Source of the DNA: a virus
Lineage: Duplodnaviria; Heunggongvirae; Uroviricota; Caudoviricetes
DNA length: 64,000 nt
Direction: 5' to 3' (one strand)
Virus record (IMG/VR): IMGVR_UViG_3300028888_000086
Shown here: in pieces, positions 3,026-47,186 of the stretch
How the letters are laid out: the number at the start of each line of letters is the position of its first letter
How positions within the stretch are numbered: the stretch's first letter is position 1
Translations under genes and position numbers: made by a program
Notes under the pieces: generated by a model
What the model was told of the DNA's origin: nothing
The model's database searches: none
Seen by the model: the letters and a program-made list of their open reading frames with translations, nothing else

Positions 3026-4885
3026 TTATTTTTTCGATTTTCCTGCTCTAAATTTATTCTTCATTTTTTCTGTATCTTCTCTCAAACTACTACCACCAAC
3101 TCCATAACCTTCTTCATTAACAACCATAAGACCTAATCCTAATAAGTTGTTTAAGAATTTTTGGTTATCCTCTGTCGTAACTGCTTCTCTTGCTTTTTCT
3201 ATAAACGGTCTTGCATTTCTAGATAACAGAGCAGATAAATCCATCTCACTGATCTTTTGTCCTGTTACTCTATATCTACCTTGACCCATTATAGGTTCAT
3301 CTTTCTTTGGATTAATGTCATGGAAAGCATCGTTACCAAATAAGGATGAAGTTACTTTACTTGAATAAGACGGTATATGATGTAGTTCAATAAGAGTCAT
3401 CCATCCACACTGTAATTTCTTATCAACTGGGACAAATTTACCTGTCATATTTTTAACTACCTTTTCATATTCTTCAGCAGTTAAATTGGCTTTTAATTCA
3501 TCCAGGTCAGTTACAGAAGACTCAGGCATTAAAATTTGACTCTGAGATTCTACATTTAATTCAGTCATCCACTCTTCTACTTTACTAGGTGTGAATTCTG
3601 AATAACAACCTACATTAAAATAGTATACTTCTTCAATAGGTTTAGTATCATGAAGCTTTAAGAATTCATCAACACTTAATTTATCATAACGCCCTTGATA
3701 ATATTTGTTTATAAGTGGCATTATTTTATTTCTTCCTGTTTTTGTTTTCTTATATTCTTCAACCATTTCATATAATCTGTACGCTATCAAACCTAATGAT
3801 TCCTCTAATAATACACCAGCAATTTTTCTATTAATGGTACTATAAGGATTCATAACAACCTCTACCCTATATTGTTTTCCAGTATTTTTATCAACCATTA
3901 TAGGCATCAATTCATCTGGCAAAACAGTAGAAATAACACCTTTACCACCATATCTATTAGTTACTTTAGAACCTACCATAAGAGTTGTTACTTTAATTAA
4001 TCTTATTCTTACAGTATAGACAACTTTATAATCATCTCTATCCATAACAATAGGATCTAAGTTATCAGCAGCCACATACTCGGGGAACTTATCAAAAATT
4101 ATAGATCTATCCTTATTTTTGTTATATTCCTCAATTACAGGCTCAGAAGTAGTAGCAAATTTATAATCTACCTTTACTGACTTCGGAATTTTAGGTTTTT
4201 CATTTTTCTGAATTAATACGTCAGATACATAAGCCTCGTCTATATTATTTGGAACCTTATATCTCTCTTCTGTAGTATATTGTGAGAGATCCTTTTTACC
4301 TTCTTCTCCAAATAATCCACCTAATTTTTCATTAAGGGCTTTATTAATTTCATCTAATCGTCTTGCTGCAAAATATGTAACTAATGAATCTCCAGAATGT
4401 ACCTTAGTTCCAACAGGTATAATCCACTTTAAAGCAGAAGAAGTTTTTATATTTAATCTTATATCAATTAAACTATAGTGAGACATCCTTCTAGCATAAG
4501 ATTCAGATACAACTAAAGCATCTTCATTAACAAGACCAAACATAGCGTGGAATAAAACCAATGTATTTAAACCAGACTTATATGTATCTTCATTTAATCC
4601 AACAGCTCCAGTAATGATATCTCCCTTTTTAACAGTTTGACCTACTTTTACTTTAGGCTCTGTGTAAATACTAATATCATTTAAAGATTGAATTGCTGTT
4701 CTTCTATTAATATCAACAGTTTCACCATTATTGAGTTTAACTGTTACTTTATCAGAATCTATACTTACAACTTTTCCTTCATCATACTCAAATTTTTCAT
4801 TAAGTATGTTATTTTTAAGCTCTTCATCGTGTCCTGTGTCAACTAAAGGACGCTGAGCATTAACTAAAGGGATACTTTGTTTCAT
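3026..4885 (-). CDS. rpoB: RNA polymerase beta subunit, C-terminal exon (exon 2)
   Basis: MKQSIPLVNAQRPLVDTG aligns to bacterial NMQRQAVPL..EAPLVGTG. It also has NRYGGKGVIS (RHGNKGV motif), MNPYSTINRKIAG, and GQGRYRVTGQKISEMDLSAL (GGQRFGEMEVWAL). Confidence 0.9.
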   Translation of the reverse strand: MKQSIPLVNAQRPLVDTGHDEELKNNILNEKFEYDEGKVVSIDSDKVTVKLNNGETVDINRRTAIQSLNDISIYTEPKVKVGQTVKKGDIITGAVGLNEDTYKSGLNTLVLFHAMFGLVNEDALVVSESYARRMSHYSLIDIRLNIKTSSALKWIIPVGTKVHSGDSLVTYFAARRLDEINKALNEKLGGLFGEEGKKDLSQYTTEERYKVPNNIDEAYVSDVLIQKNEKPKIPKSVKVDYKFATTSEPVIEEYNKNKDRSIIFDKFPEYVAADNLDPIVMDRDDYKVVYTVRIRLIKVTTLMVGSKVTNRYGGKGVISTVLPDELMPIMVDKNTGKQYRVEVVMNPYSTINRKIAGVLLEESLGLIAYRLYEMVEEYKKTKTGRNKIMPLINKYYQGRYDKLSVDEFLKLHDTKPIEEVYYFNVGCYSEFTPSKVEEWMTELNVESQSQILMPESSVTDLDELKANLTAEEYEKVVKNMTGKFVPVDKKLQCGWMTLIELHHIPSYSSKVTSSLFGNDAFHDINPKKDEPIMGQGRYRVTGQKISEMDLSALLSRNARPFIEKAREAVTTEDNQKFLNNLLGLGLMVVNEEGYGVGGSSLREDTEKMKNKFRAGKSKK

Positions 4886-4892
4886 TAATATT

Positions 4893-5260
4893 CCACTAGG
4901 TTCGTTATTCCTAGTGCGTTCTCAGATAATAATATCTTGAACTGCTTATACTTTCATATAAGATTAGACTATATCTTCATCCTTAATTACTTAAGGAGCT
5001 TAGCACTTCCACTAGACTTCTAGTGTACTCTCTTTCGAGATAGTCGTTGGGGTTAAATCTATTATACTGAGTTGGTCAATTCTCAGTTTAATTATATTTA
5101 AATTTAACCTGCTGATTGCCCATTGTTTCATATTAACCTTGTTCATCATAAGTGACCAAACCTACTATAGTTAATCTTTAGGGGATTCCAGCATTTCACT
5201 AAGTGTACATAACATATTACTATGTTACTGCTCAATTTTACACAAAGCATAGAGCATCCC
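4893..5260 (-). mobile_element. group I intron (family 1, no ORF) in rpoB-like gene; boundaries +/-10 nt
   Basis: It separates ...RRIPFINSTDSVRISMG (aligns to SLIPFLEHDDANRALMG) from MKQSIPLV. Minus-strand R element CCCCAACGACUAUCUC at ~5036-5053 and S element GGAUGAAGAUAUAGUCUAAUC at ~4957-4978 are in the right order and spacing. The terminal G precedes exon 2. Confidence 0.7.
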
Positions 5261-6567
5261 ATTGAAATACGAACAGAGTCAGTAGAGTTAATAAATGGAA
5301 TACGTCTGGTTGTTGAAGAAAGTCGATAATCAGGGTGTAAGTCTATTAAATCTATTTCTTCTACATTAACCATTTTTCTTTTCATTCTATATTTTACCTC
5401 TACTTGTCCACTTTCATTAGGCTTTAATATTTTCTTATCATAATCAACAAATTCAGATGCACATACTTTAGAATTCAAATAATCAATATAAGGAATAGTT
5501 ATCTTATTAAATTCTTTATCATATACATCAAACATTACACCATCATCAGTAATATGTGTAGATACTGTTAATGAGTTTTGTTTATTTGTATTATTATTAA
5601 TAGGAGTATCAGCTAAGTCAATAAGATCCGTAAAAGTTGTATTAAAAGCCGTAGTTTCAGGTATTTGAATTTTACTACCTAAACTATCCAAATTTATAGC
5701 ATTGATTCCAGGAGGTACTTGTAAATTACTATCTCCTTTTGATTCACTAGTTCCTTTAAAAAATCTAAAAGCTAAAGTTGTAATAGCTGTAACTTCTTCT
5801 TGAATCTTATTATACTTAGTAAAATAACTAGTAATTCTTCTTCTTGCTGATATATAATTACTTCCATTACTAGATCTAAATAAGAAATTCATAAAACTAG
5901 TATATACACTATCTATCTTCTTATCAACTATCAAGTCCTTTAGTCTATCATCCCCGAAAGCTAAACACTCATCAATAAGCTTTGTAGTAATATATTCTGG
6001 CTTATAATCTAAATCTAACTTAATCTGAAATTTCTTTATTTGTATATCAGTAAGTTTTAGTTGTTCTTTTTTATCACCAGTTAGTTTATCAATGTCTTCA
6101 TACTTAATTTCTATAGCTCTTTCTGAAACACTAGGATTTAATTCATTCTGCCTTTTGATTTTTAATACACCTTTTTTGATATCATATTTTCTATTATAGT
6201 CAAAGTTTATATATTGATCTCCTACATCAGACATACGAATCCTACAGTCAAAATCTCCGTCTAATTTATTTGTTGCAATTCTATAAGCTCCTTCGATAAT
6301 AAAAGCTCCATCAATCTCTTTAGGTATTTCAAAAGTTGCATATTTTATCTCAGGGTTATCATTTAATCTATACGAAATTTCTATTAGGTGAGATGCTGTT
6401 AAACTATTTTCTATATAATAAGCAGCTGGTCTTGGTGGTTGTTCTTTAATAGTATAATCTAAATCTACTATACTATATTTCGTATTAAATGAATCCACCT
6501 TATTAAAAAACCTAGTTACTATAGTTTTAATACCATCTCTTTTTAATAATTCATTGAAATTACTCAT
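5146..6567 (-). CDS. rpoB: RNA polymerase beta subunit, N-terminal exon (true exon end ~5257-5261; ORF tail reads into the intron)
   Basis: IDGAFIIEGAYRIA (GxFIINGxERV), LQVPPGINAINLDSLG (ETPEGPNIGLI), RRIPFINSTDSVRISMG. Confidence 0.85.
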   Translation of the reverse strand: MSNFNELLKRDGIKTIVTRFFNKVDSFNTKYSIVDLDYTIKEQPPRPAAYYIENSLTASHLIEISYRLNDNPEIKYATFEIPKEIDGAFIIEGAYRIATNKLDGDFDCRIRMSDVGDQYINFDYNRKYDIKKGVLKIKRQNELNPSVSERAIEIKYEDIDKLTGDKKEQLKLTDIQIKKFQIKLDLDYKPEYITTKLIDECLAFGDDRLKDLIVDKKIDSVYTSFMNFLFRSSNGSNYISARRRITSYFTKYNKIQEEVTAITTLAFRFFKGTSESKGDSNLQVPPGINAINLDSLGSKIQIPETTAFNTTFTDLIDLADTPINNNTNKQNSLTVSTHITDDGVMFDVYDKEFNKITIPYIDYLNSKVCASEFVDYDKKILKPNESGQVEVKYRMKRKMVNVEEIDLIDLHPDYRLSSTTRRIPFINSTDSVRISMGCSMLCVKLSSNIVICYVHLVKCWNPLKINYSRFGHL

Positions 6568-6571
6568 CTTT

Positions 6572-6919
6572 TTATACTAATGATTTTATATTGATTTGTT
6601 TATACTCACAATCAACTGAATTAAAGAACTCCTCTAATTCATTCTTTATTTTATCTTTTATATCCCTAGCAGCAACATACTCACTCATAGGTAATTCTCC
6701 ACTACATCTTATAAATGCACTATAAGATACTAAATAATTATACGTATCTTTTAATTGATATATAACTAACTTTACAGAAAATCTATCATATTTTTCTGGT
6801 ATACTATTCTTTAAAGTTTCGTATAATATATCTCTGGCTTTTGTAATACTTGGATCTAAATTGTCTTCTAATATGTTGTAAGGAATTTCATAAGATAATA
6901 AAATTTCAAAATAATTCAT
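6572..6919 (-). CDS. hypothetical protein between rpoC and rpoB
   Basis: 115-aa ORF in RNAP operon context. Confidence 0.5.
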   Translation of the reverse strand: MNYFEILLSYEIPYNILEDNLDPSITKARDILYETLKNSIPEKYDRFSVKLVIYQLKDTYNYLVSYSAFIRCSGELPMSEYVAARDIKDKIKNELEEFFNSVDCEYKQINIKSLV

Positions 6920-6933
6920 AAACTTTAAAATTC

Positions 6934-7146
6934 TTAAAACTCTGCTGAATCCATAAAGTTATTAGAATTAGCAGATTTTGATTTAACTGTTGCCTTCTTT
7001 TTTATAGCAACTTCTTCTTTCTTGTCAACTGATGGGGTAGTAGAATTAACAACTACTACCTCACCATTCTTTATTGACAATTTAATATTCAAATTTAATT
7101 CATCCTCAAAATTTGGAATCTCTAAACTTAAATTTAAAACTTTCAT
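6934..7146 (-). CDS. hypothetical small protein
   Basis: 70-aa ORF in RNAP operon. Confidence 0.4.
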   Translation of the reverse strand: MKVLNLSLEIPNFEDELNLNIKLSIKNGEVVVVNSTTPSVDKKEEVAIKKKATVKSKSANSNNFMDSAEF

Positions 7147-7147
7147 T

Positions 7148-9244
7148 TTAACCTAATTTGTCGTTTACTAACAAACCTAAAATAACTTCTGACATTACGT
7201 CTCCTTGTAATGAAACCTCTCCTTTTAATGCTTTACTAATTGACTTAGAAGCAAAACCATAAGAAAGAGTTGTATAGAATGAGGGCTTATTTAATACTGC
7301 TGATTGAGTTCCTTGATACTCTATTTCCTCTATTTTTGAAGTTTTAGGATTATAAACAACTCTAGTTAATCCAGCAAATAATAACTCAATAAGCTCTTCT
7401 TGCATTGAGTGTAAATCAGTAATGCCAGTTTTTTGGAATCCATCGTCAGTAACTTCATAAAATTGTTTTCTAAAAATGGTATAAACACTATTAATATCCT
7501 TAACTTTATTAAATCTAGCAGCTATATTATCCATTCTAACAACACCATTACATATTCTATCAAATTTCTTTACTTTAGCACCATCTGGGAAATAATATAT
7601 ACATTTAGGATTATATAAATACTCTTCATTATCTATATAAACATGAATATTACCATTTTTATCCTCATCATATTTTATTATTCCATCATTAATAGCATAA
7701 CAGTCTGATACTAAAACATTTTCTTTCTCAAAATATCTTTGTCCATTACTTCCTCTAGCTCTAAGAAGATTAATTAGGCAGTTTAATTTATAGATAGGAG
7801 ATGTTGTATTATAGGCATAACAAACCTCTTCTCCAGCCTTAAACGTACTTTTACCAACAGTCACTAAATTATCTGGACGTGGATATTTTAATTCTGCTCC
7901 ACGAACTTTAAGGTAAATCCACTTACCCTCTTCTCTAAATGTACAATCTTTAGGGGCTATTAAACAACTAGTTAAATCCAGCTTCCTTTCGTGGCCGCCA
8001 TGTTTTAAGCCAAGAGCTGTTTGAGTTGTACTTTCCATAAGAGAAGTACCAAATGAGAGACCTATAGCAGCACCATCAGTAAAATCAAATTTATTTTTAC
8101 CTAATAAGTCTGGAGTTACTACATTTAAATCTCCTTTATTTTTAGTAACTATAGATCTAACTAGCACTAAATCATCTTCAGAAGGTCTAGCGATCGAGGT
8201 AGTTGGAAATACTTTACCATCTACTGTTGTTCTTCCTAATGCTTTATATCTTGGGATTAATAAACCCTGATTATCTAAATCTTCACCATCTCTATATATA
8301 TAGGAATTTAAACAATAGGAAATTTGACGGTTTAACCATCCGCTCGATGGCACACCGCTAACTTTAATAGATTGTAGTGATCTGTTTTCAATACTATGGT
8401 AGATCATATCTTTTTCATTTAATCCAGTTAATAAAGATCCCCTTGTAATAACAGGTTTTTCATCTATACCAGATATAATGAATTGAGGCATGTTTAGAGC
8501 TGAAATACTAGAAATCTTAACTCTTCCTGCTCTATTTAATTCATCTTTTAAATCGTCTGAAAATTTACCCTCAACTTCTTTTTCATAATCAGCATATTTT
8601 TTAGTTAACATAGCTAATTTTTGTTTGTCAGTAAGTTCTTCAGAGTCAGCTATTCTACAAATTTCTTTATAAGTTTCTGTATCCGTGTCTGCGAATAATG
8701 TTTTGAATGAAAATGTTACAACGCCAGCTTGAGTTACGGCTCTTAATGCCAACTTTTGTAATTCACTTCTTTTTTCTACTCCCTGTTCATCTCTATTTAA
8801 GTAAGAAGATAATTTTACAGCAGCTTTAGCATCCATTCTAGTATATGGATCTTTTAATATATTTAATTTATCTATATCAGCATCCAATATCTTAGAAATC
8901 CTTATTTTACCATAGCATGTTGTTTTACTTTTATAATCTTCACTTCCTATCTTTCCAGTAAAAACAATGGGGGTCCCGTATTTTATCTTTTTTTCAACTT
9001 CAACATCCTTTAGTAAATCCTCGTAGCTTGTATAAAAATATTTTGGATTATCTAAGTCATCGGGATTTTCTAAAACAAACTCGGTTAAAACAGCCAAACC
9101 ATTTAAAGTTTCGTGATTAAATGGAAATATTGGCATGTTATTTTTCTTATAAACATTTACATATCTTGGGGACATTTTATTGTAGGTATCTTCTGCTACA
9201 CTTTCATCAACAAGTTGAATCGAAATTTGATCCCCGTCAAAATC
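7148..9244 (-). CDS. rpoC: RNA polymerase beta' subunit exon 3 (starts at DFDGDQ; the track's TTG start at 9256 is intron sequence)
   Basis: DFDGDQISIQLV is the catalytic NADFDGDQMAVH motif; long C-terminal beta' body. Confidence 0.9.
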   Translation of the reverse strand, partial: DFDGDQISIQLVDESVAEDTYNKMSPRYVNVYKKNNMPIFPFNHETLNGLAVLTEFVLENPDDLDNPKYFYTSYEDLLKDVEVEKKIKYGTPIVFTGKIGSEDYKSKTTCYGKIRISKILDADIDKLNILKDPYTRMDAKAAVKLSSYLNRDEQGVEKRSELQKLALRAVTQAGVVTFSFKTLFADTDTETYKEICRIADSEELTDKQKLAMLTKKYADYEKEVEGKFSDDLKDELNRAGRVKISSISALNMPQFIISGIDEKPVITRGSLLTGLNEKDMIYHSIENRSLQSIKVSGVPSSGWLNRQISYCLNSYIYRDGEDLDNQGLLIPRYKALGRTTVDGKVFPTTSIARPSEDDLVLVRSIVTKNKGDLNVVTPDLLGKNKFDFTDGAAIGLSFGTSLMESTTQTALGLKHGGHERKLDLTSCLIAPKDCTFREEGKWIYLKVRGAELKYPRPDNLVTVGKSTFKAGEEVCYAYNTTSPIYKLNCLINLLRARGSNGQRYFEKENVLVSDCYAINDGIIKYDEDKNGNIHVYIDNEEYLYNPKCIYYFPDGAKVKKFDRICNGVVRMDNIAARFNKVKDINSVYTIFRKQFYEVTDDGFQKTGITDLHSMQEELIELLFAGLTRVVYNPKTSKIEEIEYQGTQSAVLNKPSFYTTLSYGFASKSISKALKGEVSLQGDVMSEVILGLLVNDKLG

Positions 9245-10736
9245 CTTGATATTCAAGCAGTTACGTTACTTCTGCCTCGTTCTCTTATGAACTGCTATAT
9301 GTCTCCATATAGAATAGACTATATCTTCATTATTAAATTTCTTAATAATGTTCCGCTTTTCCACTTACGATTTTAGTGTACTCCTGTAAAAGGATAGTCG
9401 TTGAGGAACAATAAACTTATTAGTCAGATAAGTTTTTTATTTCTTTAAATAATTCATCTAGATCTTCATATACTTTATAAGGATACTTGAAATCACTGTC
9501 TGACTTAGTTTTTATAATATTTGAGTAATAGAATACTCGTAAACCATGTTCTAAACAAAGATTTCGTTTATTATCATCCATTTTAACTCTTTCTTCAAAA
9601 GTATATTTTTTATCAAAAAATTCAGTTGGTTTAAAATGTTGTAATCCTTGACACTCTATAACTGCATTAAAGTCGGGTAAGTAAAAATCTACGTGCTGTT
9701 TTCTTTTATACTTTAACCAATCCCAGGTATATTGTTTTATTATATTAATATTATTATCTTTACAATATAATTCAATATCAACTTCTAAAATAAATCTATC
9801 TCCACAACTAGGACATCCACAATTACTTAAATGTATAGATGGTTGCTGCCAAAACGGTCCATGAGAATTACATATTATCTTAACTGGTGTAGTACAATTT
9901 ACGTACTCAACTTCATCATATCCATAAGTATCTTTATGTATTAATTTTGCGCGACGTATAAATTCTTCAGTATTAATATTAACTCCACCATTACACTCTG
10001 AACACCCATGTCCATATAAATGATCATGTGGTCTTTGAGTAAATTCTTTTTTACACCTATTACAAATCAATTTAACTGGTGTATTGATATTTACATAATT
10101 TACTTCACTGTAATCATATTTATCTTCGCCATGTACTTTTTTAGCTGCTTCTATAAAACTTTCTGTTGTGTATTTTTTATATGGACTTGGATTACATTCT
10201 TTACATCCACATCCCTGTAAAATATCAACCGGCTTAATTTCAAAATACCCATGTATATCACAATTTAGTATAACAGGCGTACTACTATTAATATAATTAA
10301 CTTTATTATATCCGTATCTATCTCCATGAATCTCTCTAGCCTTTTCTATAAACTGTTCCTGTGTATATTTTACTCCACCTTTACAGTTAGGACATCCTTG
10401 TCCACAGAGATGATTGTGTGCAGTCTGAATAAATTCATTTCTGCACTTATTACAAATTATAATAACTTTATCTTTACTTGATGTATAATTTACTTTGCTA
10501 TAATCATATTTATTTTCACCATGTACTTTTTTAGATCTTTCTATAAATTCTTCTGTTGTATATTTTTTCATTATAATTTTAGTTTATATAATTTATTTAT
10601 ATTGTTCCTGCTGATTTTCTCTATTTTATGAATTTTTAGGGTAGGTGACTAAATCCTACATTAACCTCCTATCATAAACCTAGCGAGAGTTTCCAGCATT
10701 TAACGGAATTTTAAAACACCAATTTTAAAATATTTT
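9245..10736 (-). mobile_element. group I intron B of rpoC (family 1), ~1.49 kb, carrying a homing-endonuclease ORF in a peripheral loop just upstream of P7
   Basis: R UUCCUCAACGACUAUCC (~9393-9409) and S GAAGAUAUAGUCUAUUC (~9311-9330) lie downstream of the ORF stop. The intron ends ...AUCAAG before GAU UUU GAC. The 5' exon ends in U (GCU). Confidence 0.65.
9420..10571 (-). CDS. intron-encoded homing endonuclease-like protein: 4 tandem Zn-ribbon repeats plus C-terminal Vsr/PD-(D/E)xK-like nuclease domain
   Basis: The repeat YT.E.FIE...K.HG..YDYS.VNY....P..I.C..HG.F.Q.P..HL.G.GCP.C occurs 4 times. The C-terminus has HVDFYLPDFNAVIECQGLQHF (DFYLP..N.AIE..G.QH). Confidence 0.75.
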   Translation of the reverse strand: MKKYTTEEFIERSKKVHGENKYDYSKVNYTSSKDKVIIICNKCRNEFIQTAHNHLCGQGCPNCKGGVKYTQEQFIEKAREIHGDRYGYNKVNYINSSTPVILNCDIHGYFEIKPVDILQGCGCKECNPSPYKKYTTESFIEAAKKVHGEDKYDYSEVNYVNINTPVKLICNRCKKEFTQRPHDHLYGHGCSECNGGVNINTEEFIRRAKLIHKDTYGYDEVEYVNCTTPVKIICNSHGPFWQQPSIHLSNCGCPSCGDRFILEVDIELYCKDNNINIIKQYTWDWLKYKRKQHVDFYLPDFNAVIECQGLQHFKPTEFFDKKYTFEERVKMDDNKRNLCLEHGLRVFYYSNIIKTKSDSDFKYPYKVYEDLDELFKEIKNLSD

Positions 10737-10814
10737 AGCGTTTAATGGACTACATATGGAGATTGGGAATCTAAGTACATAATCACCATCTCCAGGTTCA
10801 TTTAACCTAACTTT
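10737..10814 (-). CDS. rpoC: rpoC mini-exon 2 (78 nt), encoding KVRLNEPGDGDYVLRFPISICSPLNA
   Basis: It encodes exactly the ~26 aa missing between ...RPPTLH (exon 1) and DFDGD (exon 3). It aligns to bacterial [29 protein letters not shown]. It is preceded by G (10815) and ends in U. Confidence 0.7.
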
Positions 10815-11120
10815 CATACAAAACATTGAATATTCCGAAAAATACTTATATTTTCATATAAGACTAGACTATATCATCATCTATATTTCAAGATGGACTG
10901 CGCTTCAAAAATAGGAATTTCACCTATTTCTTACTCCATATAGGATAGTCGTTACACCTTTTTTGATTTATAATTTCAAAACTTGGCTCGGGATTGCCAT
11001 ATTATATTTCTATAACTTAGGTTTCCCCGATAGCAGAGATTTTATTTTCTCCACACCTAGCATTTACTAGTTCACAGTCTTTGCATTATAAGATCGCTCT
11101 TATAAGTCACAAATTTCTTT
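10815..11120 (-). mobile_element. group I intron A of rpoC (family 1, no ORF, ~306 nt)
   Basis: R GGUGUAACGACUAUCC (~10943-10958) and S GAUGAUGAUAUAGUCUAG (~10867-10884) are present. The 5' exon ends CAU (U). The intron ends UGUAUG. Confidence 0.7.
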
Positions 11121-12281
11121 ATGAAGTGTAGGAGGCCTATTAATAATTACTAGTTGTTTTTCTGCAAATTCCTTAAATAATTTTTGAGTTTCAGGATTAA
11201 ATGCTTCTTCTCTAGTAGCTTTCATAGCCTCTTTGTATGTAAAGTTAAGCTCTTTCTGTAGATGTTCAATAAATTTTTCTCTAAGTAATTCATAAGCAAT
11301 AGATACAGGAATACCAATTTCATCAATCTTCAAATCTGTTGCTGGAACAATTGGACATCTTGCAGAGTTTTTTGTTCTTACTCCAAATAATTCACGGGCT
11401 AAATTTTCTTTGGAGGTATTTAATAATTCAGTAGCTTCTTTTTTACCTGTATTCAAAAAAGCTCTAAGTAATGCAGTATATCTAACTTTTTCGCCAGGAG
11501 TTTTAAAGCGGCCAATTACTTCTTCATAATTCAGGTCATTACTTTTTTTATCCTGTACACAACAAAGTCTAATAATAATACTGTACCAAACTGACAATTT
11601 ACTAGACCCTTGAGTTTTCTTACCATTTTTATATTCAAAGGTAACGGGTCTCATCATTGCAGGTAATACTAAATAATATCGATTTATAAGTTTTCTGAAT
11701 TCGTTTGCTCTTTCTGGGAAGTGTTTTTCTATAATAGCTAACAGACCTTCATAAGAACATTTAGATTCATCTGTTATAAATTCAGATATTTTTAGTTCTT
11801 TCTTTGTGGGACTATAAGTAAATTGGCAAGTATCAAAAACCTTTATAGTTAATTTCTTTCCACCACGACCAGCATATCCTAAGTTTTTGAAATCATTACC
11901 TTGGAAATCTAGTTTGATAGTACTTTCAGAAAATATATCATCAAATAATTCTTTAAATATATCAAATCTCAAGTCATTTAAGTAATAAAAAGGTAATTCT
12001 ATTCTTGCAAATCTTCTCATACCTTCCTCTCTTGTAAAAACTCTAGCTCCACAAAAAGGGCAAGGTTCATGAGAGGCTCTTTTAATTTTACCACAAATAC
12101 AACGATCTTCATAGATTGACCCGAAAGCATCAACATCATAAACTCCTCCAGGTATGGGTTCAGGATAGTTGAATTTCAGGTTAAAGTCTCTATGATCAAA
12201 TAAAACTCTATCTCGACCATCACTTCTTGTATAGTCTAATATAGCTTCATCTGTTAATAATTCTAGTGATACTTTTGACAT
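11121..12281 (-). CDS. rpoC: RNA polymerase beta' subunit exon 1 (through ...INRPPTLH)
   Basis: N-terminal Zn finger CICGKIKRASHEPCPFCG, RFARIELPFYY (RMGHIEL), INRPPTLHK (LNRAPTLHR). The annotated tail EICDL* is intron read-through. Confidence 0.9.
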
Positions 12282-13544: not shown

Positions 13545-13560
13545 AAATCCTTATATATGA
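13545..13560 (+). promoter_or_regulatory. conserved promoter-like motif (AAATCCTTATATATGA) driving the tRNA cluster
   Basis: It is a family member of the AAAGCCTTATATATGTA motif, and the first tRNA starts 7 nt downstream. Confidence 0.55.
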
Positions 13561-13566
13561 TTTAAT

Positions 13567-13654
13567 GGAGAGGTGCCGAAGTTGGTCATAACGGCCTAGA
13601 CTTGAAATCTTGTGTGTCTTTATAGACCCGTGGGTTCGAATCCCACCCTCTCCG
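13567..13654 (+). tRNA. tRNA-Ser(UGA), class II with long variable arm
   Basis: Acceptor GGAGAGG/CCTCTCC, D-arm GCCG...CGGC, anticodon loop CTTGAAA, T-arm GTGGGTTCGAATCCCAC. Confidence 0.8.
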
Positions 13655-13678
13655 CTTTCAAAATAAAATAACAAAAAT

Positions 13679-14088
13679 GGCGGCATGTTGGAATTGGTAG
13701 ACAAGGCGGTCTTTTTGCCAATTAGACAAACAAAAGAGAGTGCATAGGTAAGAAATTCCTATGTAGAACCTCTCAAATTCGGTGGAAGTCTCTATGAGAA
13801 AATACCGAGCTAAATCAGATTTAATTCTGTAAATGTGTAGAGAGCAGAAGGGAGGTACCTAAGTTGAGAAAAGCATTGAGTATGACGGTAGTGCGGAGGT
13901 GTCAGCCTCAGGATTGGTTCGACTCCAAAATGCTGAGTTGCAACTTTTTCAATATGGTAATGGTGTGCTCCAGACCACAACAACACAATTAGTCGCCAAG
14001 CGTCTGAGAAAGTTGGCTATGGTAACATAGTGTGGTAGGAAAAACCGCTCCCAATTATGGGGTCCCAGTTCGACTCTGGGTGTCGCTA
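13679..14088 (+). tRNA. tRNA-Leu(UAA) interrupted by a 326-nt group I intron between U34 and A35 (exons 13679-13713 and 14040-14088)
   Basis: 5' exon GGCGGCA TG TTG GAATTGGTAGA CAA G GCGGT CUU. 3' exon AAAA ACCGC, long variable arm TCCCAATTATGGGG, T-arm CCCAGTTCGACTCTGGG, acceptor TGTCGCT (two G.U pairs with GGCGGCA). The intron ends ...GUAGG. Confidence 0.75.
13714..14039 (+). mobile_element. group I intron (family 2) in the tRNA-Leu(UAA) anticodon loop
   Basis: Canonical cyanobacterial/plastid trnL insertion site. The 5' exon ends in U and the intron ends in G. It has internal P7-like pairing UUCGACUCC / UUAGUCGCC, and shares AAUACCGAGCUAA with the AAA+ ATPase intron. Confidence 0.65.
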
Positions 14089-14136
14089 CAAAAGAGGTGA
14101 AAAATCCTCTTTTATTTTTCCGTCTATAAATCCTTA

Positions 14137-14154
14137 AAAGCCTTATATATGTAA
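14137..14154 (+). promoter_or_regulatory. promoter-like motif AAAAGCCTTATATATGTA preceding a ~140-nt structured non-coding region
   Basis: Motif family member. It sits immediately after the hairpin AGAGGTGAAAAATCCTCT plus T-run. Confidence 0.5.
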
Positions 14155-14335
14155 TGGAGATCGAGCTAATAGTTAATTCCGATTTTCCGGGGTAAAGACG
14201 CACCCGGCAACAGAAGTGGTCAAATTTATGAAAAGGGAAAGCCTGAGAATGCACCATTACGTTAGACTGTGCAAAAAACTTGGGCTTTCCTAATTTTTTT
14301 TCAAGACTTTTATGTCTTTTTATTTTTTTTCTTGA
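14155..14335 (+). ncRNA. candidate small RNA (promoter to double terminator)
   Basis: No ORF. Stems CCGGGG...CCCGG, GGAAAGCC...GGGCUUUCC plus U8, then AAGACUUUUAUGUCUU plus U-run. Promoter upstream and next gene's promoter downstream. Confidence 0.4.
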
Positions 14336-18045: not shown

Positions 18046-18354
18046 ATGATTAAATCTGATAATTACAAATTAAAATGGATTGATGAAGGAGGTATATTTT
18101 TCCCAGTTAATGGAAATACTATATTACATTCATCATTAGGTCCTGGTGTCTGGAAAGTTGTACCTAGTCCTCGTATGAATGATGGAAGATTAGGACTAAC
18201 TAAAGTATGTGATAAATTTGAATTCGAATACAAAATTTATGACATAGGAAATAAAAGCTTCAGAGATAAAGTTATTAATGTCTGGAATTCTGATCTGTTT
18301 ATAGAAGATGGAAGAAATTTAGGCATAATAATGAATGGAACAAAAGGAACGGGT
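18046..18354 (+). CDS. AAA+ ATPase exon 1 (ends ...NGTKGTG, first half of Walker A)
   Basis: The ORF ends exactly at GTKGTG-stop and the exon ends in U (GGU). Confidence 0.7.
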
Positions 18355-18616
18355 TAAATAAATAGCCCTTCTTCTAAGGAATTAGAAGAATTTTTAAGGA
18401 ACGAATTCGGTGAAGGCTGTGATGCTAATACCGAGCTAACAGAAATAATTACGTAAGGTATTTCTGTAGTGTAGAGCATAGTAGTTGAATAAATATAATA
18501 CTACCAAGAGCGCTCCTTACCCCAACTGAAATAAGTGGGTAAAAATATATGCCGAGCTTATAAGAAGAAGAATTATAAGAGTCTAGGGATAAAAAGCTCT
18601 AGAGATAACAAAACTG
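18355..18616 (+). mobile_element. group I intron (family 2) splitting the P-loop codons of the AAA+ ATPase gene
   Basis: Joining the exons gives GTKGTG|KTVSAKLLCNELNMPVLIVDSDF, i.e. GxxGxGKT. The intron contains AAUACCGAGCUAA and CCGAGCUUAUAAG, shared with the trnL intron, and ends ...AACUG. Confidence 0.65.
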
Positions 18617-19549
18617 AAAACCGTATCAGCTAAACTTCTCTGTAATGAACTTAATATGCCTGTATTAATTGTTGATAGTGATTTTGAAGGTAGAATCTTA
18701 GAATTTATACAAAATTTAGATTATGAATGTGTAGTTCTTATTGATGAAGCCGAAAAAACATTTAAAGACGAAAGAGATAACAGTGAAGTTTTATTGAAGC
18801 TTATTGACGGAATATATAATAGATCCAGAAAATTATATATTCTCACTACTAATAAATTAACTGTAAATGAAAATTTATTAGGAAGACCAGGTAGAATCAG
18901 ATATATACAAGAATTCAATAATCTTGATCCTAAATTGATATCACTGTATTTAGATGACAATTTAAAGGATAAAGAAAAGAAACAATACGTAACTGAAATT
19001 GTAGATCTTTTAGAAATCTCAACTATCGACATTCTCAAAAATGTTGTAGATGAGGTTAATATGTTTGGTGAAATTCCTGAAGATTCGCCAATGAATATTC
19101 CAAGAGGTAAGTACGTATTTGATATTCTTAAATTGTGGGGTTGTACCGAAGATGATATTCCAGATGTTAAAAAGTTTCTGGATAAACATAAGACTTCTGG
19201 AAAATCGTTATATGAATGGTTATATAATAAAGCAAATGATGAAGATCTTCCAGAAGAATATAAAGATACAGAAGATAACTACTACAATTATGAACTTCTA
19301 AGAAATGAATTTGGATATACCAATAGTTGTACATATTCTACAATAGATAAACTTTCTACAAAGTATAGTACAATGTGGAAAGACTGTGATACCTCTATAG
19401 GTAGAGTATTAACAGAACCAGATGCATTCCATAAAGAAGGTGGAGATTATAATTTTATGCTAATTGAAGGGAGATATGATAAGGAAGTTTATCTTTGCGT
19501 ATTACTAAAACAAAGAAAATCTCCAACATTATATCATGGAGTATATTAA
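18617..19549 (+). CDS. AAA+ ATPase exon 2 (Walker B VVLIDEAE, sensor-1 TTN, Arg finger RPGRIR)
   Basis: Classic AAA second region of homology LLGRPGRIRY. The frame is open upstream of the annotated Met back to 18617. Confidence 0.75.
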   Translation, partial: KTVSAKLLCNELNMPVLIVDSDFEGRILEFIQNLDYECVVLIDEAEKTFKDERDNSEVLLKLIDGIYNRSRKLYILTTNKLTVNENLLGRPGRIRYIQEFNNLDPKLISLYLDDNLKDKEKKQYVTEIVDLLEISTIDILKNVVDEVNMFGEIPEDSPMNIPRGKYVFDILKLWGCTEDDIPDVKKFLDKHKTSGKSLYEWLYNKANDEDLPEEYKDTEDNYYNYELLRNEFGYTNSCTYSTIDKLSTKYSTMWKDCDTSIGRVLTEPDAFHKEGGDYNFMLIEGRYDKEVYLCVLLKQRKSPTLYHGVY

Positions 19550-45650: not shown

Positions 45651-45894
45651 TGTTAGCCCCTCTATATAGTGATATATAGAGAAAATCCTGAATATGCTGG
45701 AAACTCCTAAAGCTTTATCTACCAAAGTGTGAAAATGATAAAGATATTACAATGGACAATCAGCAGGGATAACTCTGTAAAAAGAGAAGCCCTCAACGAC
45801 TACCAAGGGACATCTAAAATAAAATTAGATGAAGGTATAGTCTAAACCCAAAATAAAATATCTCGAAAGGGAGGGTATCAATTGTATCACACAA
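45651..45894 (+). mobile_element. group I intron 1 of polA (family 1, no ORF; boundaries +/-30 nt)
   Basis: R CCUCAACGACUACC (~45790-45803) and S GAUGAAGGUAUAGUCUAAACCC (~45829-45850) on the plus strand. These are reverse complements of the rpoB/rpoC intron elements. Confidence 0.6.
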
Positions 45895-46529
45895 TAATCT
45901 CAAAATCAGATATAAAAAGTACCATTTGTTCTTATCCAGGACATTTATTAAGTTATTTTGATATAAGTTCAGCGGAGGTAAAGAGTGCTGGATTTATGTC
46001 GAAAGACGAAAACTTAATAAATATGTTTAAAAATAATATTGATGTATATATAGCAACAGCAAAATCGTATCTTCAAGATAGATGGGATACATTAACTAAA
46101 AAAGAGCAAAAAGCATTTAGAAAAACATTTAAAACTGTTACACTTGCACTTATTTACGGGCAGGGCGTTAATGCCCTAGCTAGTAGATTAAACATTACTA
46201 AGCAGGATGCTCAAGCTATTGTAGATCAAGTTTATACTTCTTATCCAAAACTTAGAGAATATATTAAAGAACAACAAGAATATCCATTACATCACAACGG
46301 AAGAGTGCGAACTTTCTTTGGAGATGTTTTGGTTGCAGAAGAATGGAAATATTATTTAAAAGCTACAGATCCATATGAAAAAAAAGCATTAGCCGCTCGA
46401 ATTGGCAGGGCTGGGAGCAACTATCCCATACAAGGTGGCACGAGCCTGGCGATGAGCAGTGGTTTCTTTAACGACCTACGAGTAGCAAAACAAGAAGGTT
46501 GGGATTTAACAAGTTTTATAACGGTCCAT
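45895..46529 (+). CDS. polA: family A DNA polymerase exon 2 (motif A through motif C His)
   Basis: SYFDISSAEVK (DYSQIELR), TLALIYGQGVNALASRL...YTSYPKLREYI (motif B/O-helix region), NYPIQGGTSLAMS, ending ...TVH| at the H of the catalytic VHDE. Confidence 0.8.
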
Positions 46530-46815
46530 AAGTAAAATTGTGGCATACTGAAGTAATTTAGTATGAAAAAGATTGTGAACTCATATATGTGAGGTGTCTA
46601 AGAAAATAAAAAATCTTAGGCTAACGGTAAAAGCTAAGTTAGAAATAATATGCTAATACCGTGCCAAGTCAGAAATGAAAGGTGTAGAGACTATCCTTTA
46701 TGGAGTAGGTTTATAGTGAAATTCTATATTCCGAAGTGCAATCCATCTTGCAATATAGATGATGATATAGTCCAGCTCTAATGGAAACATTAGGAGAAAG
46801 CGGATTCTAATACTT
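46530..46815 (+). mobile_element. group I intron 2 of polA (family 1), inserted inside motif C between His and Asp
   Basis: The 5' exon ends CAU. R GGUGUAGAGACUAUCC (~46678-46693) and S GAUGAUGAUAUAGUCCAGC (~46759-46777) are nearly identical to rpoC intron A. The 3' end is approximate. Confidence 0.6.
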
Positions 46816-47186
46816 GTGATTTTCCAGCAGATAAATTATGGGATATCAGAAAATTTTACGATCATAACTTTACAGATTTTTGCTATGAAATGACAGGAAT
46901 TCAGTTATTGTTTGATATCTTAATTGGAGCGTCATATCAAGATGCATGTGAAGCTAAATCAATAGATGATAATACTGTAGAATTAACGGGTAACGCACGA
47001 TCCCATTTAATGATTATACAAAAACTAAATGAATGTCCTGGTCTAAAATATACTATAGACATGAATATAGATGATATAGTACCAGATTTTGAAACTAATT
47101 GTACAAAAAGATTTATAAAAGAAGCAGGATGTTCGTTTGTTATGGATAATTCAAAATATTCAATCAAGTATACAAGATTGAGTTAA
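46816..47186 (+). CDS. polA: family A DNA polymerase exon 3 (C-terminal tail; contains annotated ORF 46890-47186)
   Basis: The open frame extends upstream of the Met to ~46795 and would begin DDFPAD... after VH, giving VHDD. IIQKLNECPGLKYTIDMNI resembles the Pol I C-terminal IHQLMENCTRLDVPLLVEV. Confidence 0.5.

Follow-up and report, generated by a model that had tools for sequence, protein, structure and literature searches.

A 326-nt group I intron of the compact bacterial tRNA type very probably interrupts a phage tRNA-Leu(UAA) gene between U34 and A35

The sporadic distribution of the trnL(UAA) intron in bacteria is a matter of long-standing debate. The classical Nostoc/Anabaena trnL intron sits between positions 34 and 35 of the tRNA, with the junctions CUU/intron...G/AAAA (Williams 2020, doi 10.1101/2020.01.27.920355). 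As for phages, all introns known at the time of a 2014 review were in protein-coding genes (PMC3984707), and our literature search turned up no report of a phage tRNA gene that contains a group I intron. Here we analyzed a 64,000-nt stretch (the window) of the Caudoviricetes record IMGVR_UViG_3300028888_000086, a phage contig with a G+C content of 27% and split multisubunit RNA polymerase genes. We are highly confident that positions 13679-14088 of the window are a phage tRNA-Leu(UAA) gene into which a 326-nt group I intron of the compact bacterial tRNA type (IC3-like) is inserted between U34 and A35. The insertion point had been equated with the cyanobacterial and plastid trnL site in the initial annotation of this DNA, and the description by Williams (2020) bears this out.

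Exon 1 (13679-13713, plus strand, 35 nt) reads GGCGGCA UG UUGG AAUUGGUAG ACAA G GCGGU CUU and contains the 5′ acceptor strand, the D-arm, the 5′ anticodon-stem strand GCGGU and the residues C32, U33 and U34. Exon 2 (14040-14088, plus strand, 49 nt) starts with AAAA ACCGC, which is A35, A36, A37 and A38 followed by the 3′ anticodon-stem strand ACCGC, and goes on with the long variable arm CCCAAUUAUGGGG, the T-arm CCCAG UUCGACU CUGGG, the acceptor strand UGUCGCU and the discriminator A. The gene encodes no CCA at its 3′ end. Both exons were located with ARAGORN in intron mode and by the cloverleaf of the joined exons. When joined, they fold into a clean cloverleaf of an 84-nt type-II tRNA-Leu(UAA) with a long variable arm; the anticodon stem GCGGU/ACCGC is unbroken in this spliced tRNA and the intron lies between positions 34 and 35. 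With introns allowed, ARAGORN reported one split tRNA in the window (13679-14089, intron of 326 nt) and none in 10 block-shuffled copies of it (640 kb in total). The split-tRNA signal is not a chance alignment. The initial annotation had described a tRNA-Leu(UAA) split at U34/A35, with halves 326 nt apart, a 5′ exon ending in U and an intron ending in G. All of this is confirmed, down to the exact coordinates: the insert is 13714-14039, the exon ends in U13713 and the intron in G14039. The gene was missed by default ARAGORN and by the Rfam tRNA model, with which only a tRNA-Ser(UGA) and four tRNAs near 62 kb were seen.

The insert (13714-14039, plus strand) was assigned to the group I introns, IC3-like bacterial tRNA-intron type, with R1, a covariance model built from 19 compact intron-split tRNAs (177-226 nt) on other IMG/VR contigs, the window being left out. 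RNAalifold on the 19-sequence alignment recovered P2, P3, P4, P5, P6, P8 and P9, with compensatory changes in 26 of 40 pairs. R1 matched the window at 13720-14045 over all 216 model positions (109.9 bits, E = 7e-27), and the cmsearch alignment contained one 85-nt insertion, in the P8 loop (L8). Covariation was assessed on 81 R1 matches, 64 of them distinct, with P7, which R1 does not encode, added by hand as a pseudoknot. Among the 64 distinct relatives, 95.3% of cells pair as compared with 72.6% in shuffles, and changes on both sides occur in 37 of the 46 family pairs. When the partners were slid by 1-3 columns, pairing fell to 32-47%; the family covariation exceeded all 500 shuffles and all slid controls. 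In the window row itself, 42 of the 46 family pairs are present, with P3, P4, P7, P8 and P9 complete, and the hand-drawn helices P1-P9 of the window all pass a base-by-base pair check. In addition, over 13762-13813 (the end of P2, P3, P4 and P5) the window shares 86.5% identity with a group I intron that interrupts Pectobacterium phage portal genes, and by eye the string GUGUAGAGAGCAGAAGGGAGGUACCUAAG resembles the J6/7-P7-P3′-P8 core of the Azoarcus and Anabaena pre-tRNA introns. From these sequence features, the intron is predicted to be self-splicing.

The group I model of Rfam, RF00028, gave no match to the window intron at the gathering threshold, nor at E ≤ 10 on a 1.2-kb slice. It also missed L128 and L109, the two other long-insert relatives scanned. 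The same model found the Pectobacterium phage portal-gene intron (32.9 bits), which served as a control, as well as L127, a compact relative that exceeded the gathering score of 50 with 69 bits, so we read the miss in the window as a false negative that marks a limit of sensitivity. It is probably due to the 85-nt P8 insertion or to peripheral insertions. The RF00028 seed was noted to be without bacterial sequences (Williams 2020, doi 10.1101/2020.01.27.920355). An Rfam group I scan had been proposed in the initial annotation as a check on the intron; taken alone, its outcome would wrongly have led to rejection of the finding.

The 5′ strand of P1, UCUU|UUU (13710-13716, plus strand), pairs with the internal guide AAAGAGA, the 3′ strand of P1 (13733-13739, plus strand), and 7 of 7 pairs are standard or G·U. 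The 5′ splice site is just 3′ of U13713, the wobble partner of G13736 in this 7-bp P1. In an alternative register two bases to the 3′ side, U13713 is opposite G13738; U13712 is opposite a G in neither register. According to sequence reading, the same form of P1, with four exon pairs and three intron pairs, occurs in L127, and GAGUGC is conserved at the guide in the relatives. P10, the pairing with the 3′ exon, cannot be drawn for this intron. The anticodon stem likely substitutes for it, by analogy with the Anabaena intron, in which it reportedly plays that role.

P2 is the hairpin GCAUAGG-U-AA / UU-CCUAUGU (13742-13764, plus strand; pair check), capped by a GAAA tetraloop at 13752-13755, and in the family this helix (helix 1) shows both-sided changes in 7 of 7 pairs. 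The 5′ strand of P3, CCUCUC (13769-13774, plus strand), forms 6 of 6 pairs with the 3′ strand GGGAGG (13850-13855, plus strand), which was placed by covariation and the window pair check. All six P3 pairs change on both sides in the family, and 96% of the cells pair. J3/4 (AAA) and the P4-P5-P6 domain occupy 13775-13836 (plus strand), where pair checks gave P4 (13779-13784/13803-13808), P5 as a 4-bp hairpin (13789-13792/13796-13799), P6 (13809-13810/13835-13836) and P6a (13816-13819/13826-13829), all on the plus strand. The 5′ strand of P7 consists of G, a bulged A and GAGCA (13840-13846, plus strand) and makes 6 of 6 pairs with the 3′ strand UGCUCC (13966-13971, plus strand; covariation and window pair check). 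In the family, 97.4% of P7 cells pair and three pairs change on both sides. The variants GACUA/UAGUC (the commonest), GACUU/AAGUC, GAGCA/UGCUC (the window) and GAUCA/UGAUC are paired changes. P7 and P3 form a pseudoknot in the window, the J6/7-P7-P3′ string GUGUAGAGA..GA.GG is unbroken, and the guanosine-binding site would lie in P7.

P8 as a whole spans 13856-13959 (plus strand; cmsearch and pair checks). It is made of a base (13856-13859/13956-13959), the 11-nt tetraloop-receptor motif CCUAAG/UAUGG (13858-13863/13953-13957) and an extension helix (about 13864-13871/13944-13951), each on the plus strand and supported by pair checks. By analogy with the Azoarcus structure, the GAAA loop of L2 would dock on the P8 receptor and a GUAA loop in L9 would provide a second contact. 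The P9 domain (13974-14036, plus strand; pair checks) has the closing helix ACCAC/GUGGU (13974-13978/14032-14036), an inner hairpin at about 13995-14016 and a hairpin at 14017-14030 with GUAA (14022-14025) as its tetraloop. In the family, 99% of the cells of helix 9 and 97.5% of those of helix 10 pair, and both helices show covariation. The intron ends with the terminal G (omega G) at 14039 on the plus strand, as read from the sequence, with the 3′ splice site directly after it and AAAAACCGC following. The 3′ junction is ...GUGGUAGG|AAAAAC in the window and ...GUGGUAAG|AAAAUC in the relatives. No homing-endonuclease ORF was found in the intron. The minus-strand ORFs that overlap it (58 and 102 aa) match no PHROG family and were taken as spurious.

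The outer part of the P8 extension, GUUGAAAU...UUGCAAG...UUUCAAUAUGG, is common to L128, L058, L070, L101 and L117, and the inner part is not. The inner insertion is without a counterpart in any relative found: a sub-clade core scan of metagenomes returned five loci, none with this insertion, and exact-pattern scans of IMG/VR gave no matches for the P3′-P8 string or for the T-arm-like stretch within P8. Thus neither the contig of the window nor its close kin are in IMG/VR as scanned. Within the insertion is a T-arm-like hairpin, UUGG-UUCGACU-CCAA (13914-13928, plus strand; from the sequence), whose 7-nt loop UUCGACU is the T-loop of exon 2 and in which closing pairs like G53-C61 are kept. It is absent from the minimum-free-energy fold, where the stretch pairs otherwise. 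Neither ARAGORN nor Rfam gave a tRNA match at the hairpin, and no homologue of it was found.

The architecture could be as described and splicing nevertheless lost, through the P8 insertion or a weak P1/P10, which would make the locus a tRNA pseudogene. The insertion is unique among the relatives found, RF00028 fails on the intron, and its R1 score is 109.9 bits as against 180-225 bits for the compact relatives. We nonetheless give such a loss only a slim chance, considering that P8 loops are a usual place for insertions in group I introns, that nothing is broken in the core helices, the GUGUAGAGA..GA.GG string, the receptor, the U·G pair or the terminal G, that the exons retain a perfect cloverleaf, that relatives with larger peripheral insertions (480-556 nt) retain the same core, and that the phage depends heavily on UUA.

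The splice sites could also be one base further left. ARAGORN set both boundaries one base leftward (ggtct/gaaaa), which led to the label tRNA-Phe(GAA). From the exons only, the boundaries are ambiguous because U13712/U13713 and G14038/G14039 repeat, and in both registers the 5′ site is preceded by a U and the 3′ site by a G. Splicing after U13712 and G14038 would put a GAA anticodon on a leucine-type body. Yet it is U13713, not U13712, that faces a G in both P1 registers, the junction CUU|...G|AAAA is found in every tRNA-Leu relative and in the literature, and the body has the long variable arm and A73. These two are features of leucine, not phenylalanine, tRNAs. The P1 wobble together with the junction of the relatives therefore decides for the anticodon UAA (Leu), not GAA, and we regard the leftward register as very improbable.

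The possibility that the insert is no group I intron but represents distinct small RNAs or tRNAs, or else an intron of the bulge-helix-bulge or group II kind, we consider practically negligible, for the T-arm-like hairpin at 13914-13928, which resembles part of a tRNA, and the missing Rfam group I match are set against the full-length R1 match (E = 7e-27), a length of 326 nt that is too short for group II with no Rfam group II match, and the result that ARAGORN and Rfam (E ≤ 10) gave no tRNA inside the insert, where independent tRNAs had been named in the initial annotation as the case that would speak against it. The protein-spliced tRNA introns of archaea and eukaryotes are short, usually at position 37/38, and bounded by a bulge-helix-bulge motif, and bacteria and their phages are not known to have a bulge-helix-bulge splicing machinery. 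This type was excluded by the length of 326 nt, the site at 34/35, the full group I core and the U/G boundaries.

The group I intron of tRNA-Leu(UAA) is accompanied by an uninterrupted tRNA-Ser(UGA) gene located 23 nt upstream of the split gene (13567-13655, plus strand; ARAGORN; Rfam tRNA, 50.5 bits). Upstream of this tRNA-Ser/tRNA-Leu pair is the promoter-like motif CCTTATATATG (13549-13559, plus strand), found by motif enrichment. With one mismatch allowed, the motif CCTTATATRTG occurs 28 times in the window compared with 4.0 expected from shuffles, a seven-fold excess; sites are located, for example, at 13549, 14141, 14339, 28009 and 51422, and the motif also matches the related phage loci L011-L057. 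It is probably the promoter for the phage's own RNA polymerase. A consensus scan found a terminator-like hairpin, AAAAGAGG...CCUCUUUU with a T-run, directly after tRNA-Leu (14090-14120, plus strand), and no promoter-like motif was found between tRNA-Ser and tRNA-Leu. With the motif upstream, the terminator downstream and none in between, the two genes probably form one transcription unit. Of the leucine codons in 11 long ORFs, 57.5% are UUA, and a tRNA-Leu(UAA) is thus plainly useful to the phage. The RNA polymerase beta′ N-terminal ORF led to 47 related phage loci (60-68% identity), in which no tRNA or intron was detected at the corresponding place and only the promoter motif matches. The downstream ORF as a query yielded no relatives.

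Just beyond the terminator, 14141-14305 (plus strand) starts with a promoter-like motif at 14141 and continues with about 150 nt without an ORF and a long hairpin, GGGAAAGCC...GGGCUUUCC, with a U-run. This segment has a weak partial match to alpha_tmRNA (26.6 bits, below the gathering score) and a fold z-score of −1.8. It is a candidate small RNA or leader.

On this arrangement, the following pathway can be proposed. The tRNA-Ser and the split tRNA-Leu would be made as one transcript, bounded by the motif at 13549 and the terminator at 14090. P1 would form by pairing of the exon UCUU and the intron UUU with the guide AAAGAGA, and U13713·G13736 would mark the 5′ splice site. The core would be built by the P3/P7 pseudoknot, P4-P6 and P8; the GAAA of L2 would dock on CCUAAG/UAUGG in P8 and the GUAA of L9 would add the second peripheral contact. 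A free guanosine bound in P7 would attack after U13713, and G14039 would then replace this guanosine. The exons, kept together by the anticodon stem GCGGU/ACCGC, would be ligated with the junction GGCGGUCUU|AAAAACCGC. This would yield an 84-nt tRNA for UUA, which is by far the commonest leucine codon of the phage.

About five further group I introns appear to interrupt genes of the window, namely those for RNA polymerase, DNA polymerase and an ATPase, so that this intron-rich stretch would have about six in all. R1 matched a core of 46.1 bits at 18347-18549 (plus strand), between ORF 18046-18357, which corresponds to profile positions 5-86 of phrog_2376, and ORF 18656-19549, which belongs to the same family (profile 103-242). 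An intron of about 300 nt thus seems to interrupt the ATPase gene. Two intervals on the plus strand, 45680-45882 and 46536-46890, contain R1 matches at 45750-45883 (24.6 bits) and 46624-46693 (40.6 bits) and lie on either side of ORF 45882-46535, whose match to DNA_pol_A is confined to the middle of the profile (139-307). Two group I introns appear to split this family A DNA polymerase gene. On the minus strand, 9257-11099 lies between the RNA polymerase beta′ ORFs 11100-12281 and 7148-9256 and contains an R1 match (10946-11030, 37.5 bits) as well as an HNH ORF (9420-10571; phrog_559, E = 2e-91). This arrangement resembles that of a group I intron which carries a gene for a homing endonuclease. 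A further intron may be present in the RNA polymerase beta gene at 4886-5252 (minus strand), where R1 gave weak matches of 19.2 and 11.5 bits between ORFs 5146-6567 and 3026-4885 (RNA_pol_Rpb2_6).

The relatives of the window are IMG/VR contigs, mostly of 200-400 kb. A scan of IMG/VR with the degenerate core TGYAGAGANNNGANGGNNNNNACCTAAG gave 72 matches on 71 loci. By ARAGORN in intron mode, 59 of the 72 matches are inside split tRNA genes with introns of more than 100 nt, and the tRNA is most often Leu(UAA), followed by Arg(UCU), Met(CAU), Gln, Pro, Ser, Thr and Tyr. R1 gave 225.6 bits for the compact relative L127. The closest relative by BLAST is L128, a tRNA-Leu(UAA) intron on a viral contig that has the P8 extension and the L9 hairpin, too. 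Core-column identity to the window is 71% for L109 and 68% for L103, both tRNA-Leu(UAA) introns on viral contigs. The best bacterial value, among the matches listed, is 65%, so that the margin to the viral-contig introns is small. Some of the "viral" matches are 95-98% identical to an Achromobacter intron, which suggests that they are probably host tRNA genes beside prophages. String searches with the T-arm/acceptor and with the D-arm/anticodon stem returned unrelated tRNAs and one chance match, and no copy of the gene with or without an intron. A tRNA-Leu(UAA) gene with a 205-nt group I intron and the junctions CUU|...G|AAAA is present, unannotated, in a 735-kb huge phage (LR756501.1, about 190.2-190.5 kb; L254, 572-862); the paper on this huge phage makes no mention of introns.

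Two of the viral contigs had further RNA features. L109 (2936-3535, plus strand, and nearby), which carries a split tRNA-Leu, also had a ROOL RNA (304.7 bits), a tmRNA-like match (43.1 bits, slightly below the gathering score of 47) and a weak twister-P1 match within a few kb. On L123, three R1 matches (131-137 bits) within 1.8 kb (5437-7236, minus strand) suggest an array of split tRNA genes.

In bacteria, the core pattern was found at at least 120 loci; 95 of the 109 analyzed are within split tRNAs, and 51 are tRNA-Leu(UAA). Hosts of the split tRNAs, among the matches listed, were Proteobacteria, Acidobacteriota, Bacteroidota and Bacilli. Cyanobacterial loci were absent from the bacterial matches listed, for a search pattern that required ACCTAAG. 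R1 scored 86-194 bits on the bacterial introns.

These results bear on the view, expressed in the initial annotation, that the element is unusual in a viral genome. It stands for the literature (PMC3984707) and does not stand for the sequences, where dozens of IMG/VR contigs and LR756501.1 carry such introns. The 2014 statement that phage group I introns are in protein-coding genes only is likewise not supported by the present sequences. Default tRNA finders and Rfam miss such genes, and for that reason the tRNA counts of large phages are probably too low. An apparently absent tRNA-Leu(UAA) in a large phage may be a split one, of which the 735-kb huge phage is one case. The phage copies at the same site also make up a sequence set for testing whether phages have carried the trnL intron. 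A wider reading, to which we attach a small probability, is that split tRNA genes are widespread and unannotated in large phages; if so, phage tRNA-Leu(UAA) genes could have moved the trnL intron between bacterial lineages. As a further part of this reading, the lineage-specific P8 insertion with its T-arm copy might be functional, for instance as a docking place for a tRNA-binding protein that aids or times splicing, instead of neutral filler.

The window element appears to be a well-known kind of intron that would work as other tRNA group I introns do. The understood working of such introns is unchanged, and the element matters for annotation and for the natural history of the trnL intron, with no new mechanism. 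With the introns of phage protein genes (T4 td, Twort, the Pectobacterium phage portal gene) it shares the ribozyme class. Those introns interrupt ORFs, often contain HNH or GIY-YIG genes, as does the Pectobacterium intron with its HNH gene, and have a P7 of the GAUAUAGUC type, whereas the window intron interrupts a tRNA, is without an ORF and has an IC3-type core. The introns of bacterial tRNA genes match the core pattern and R1 as the window does, and the difference is that the window intron is on a phage contig.

Like the Azoarcus pre-tRNA-Ile intron (IC3), the window intron has the core GUGUAGAGA-NNN-GA-N-GG-NNNNN-ACCUAAG, a GAAA loop on P2, the 11-nt receptor in P8 and a GNRA loop in P9, has no P5abc, and is located in the anticodon loop. 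Unlike it, the window intron is in another tRNA and at another position, and its P9 is of the CCAGACCAC...GUGGUA type, which is common to Leu, Arg and Thr introns, in contrast to the CCAGGGAGUGGCGAAAGUCAC type of Azoarcus. The Azoarcus intron measures 205 nt and is without the P8 insertion. L059, which is located on a viral contig and is nearly a copy of the Azoarcus type, scores 112 bits on R1.

The Anabaena and other cyanobacterial trnL introns differ from the window intron in length (about 250 nt as compared with 326 nt), and the 85-nt P8 insertion, the 16-nt P1 loop and the location on a phage distinguish the latter. P8 of the Anabaena intron presumably has a variant receptor, while that of the window has the canonical CCUAAG/UAUGG. 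The same tRNA and the same site, the ribozyme class, the U·G pair at the 5′ splice site, the terminal G and the lack of an endonuclease gene are common to both, and we take the layout of P2, J3/4, P4 and J6/7-P7-P3′ in the Anabaena intron to be the same as that in the window.
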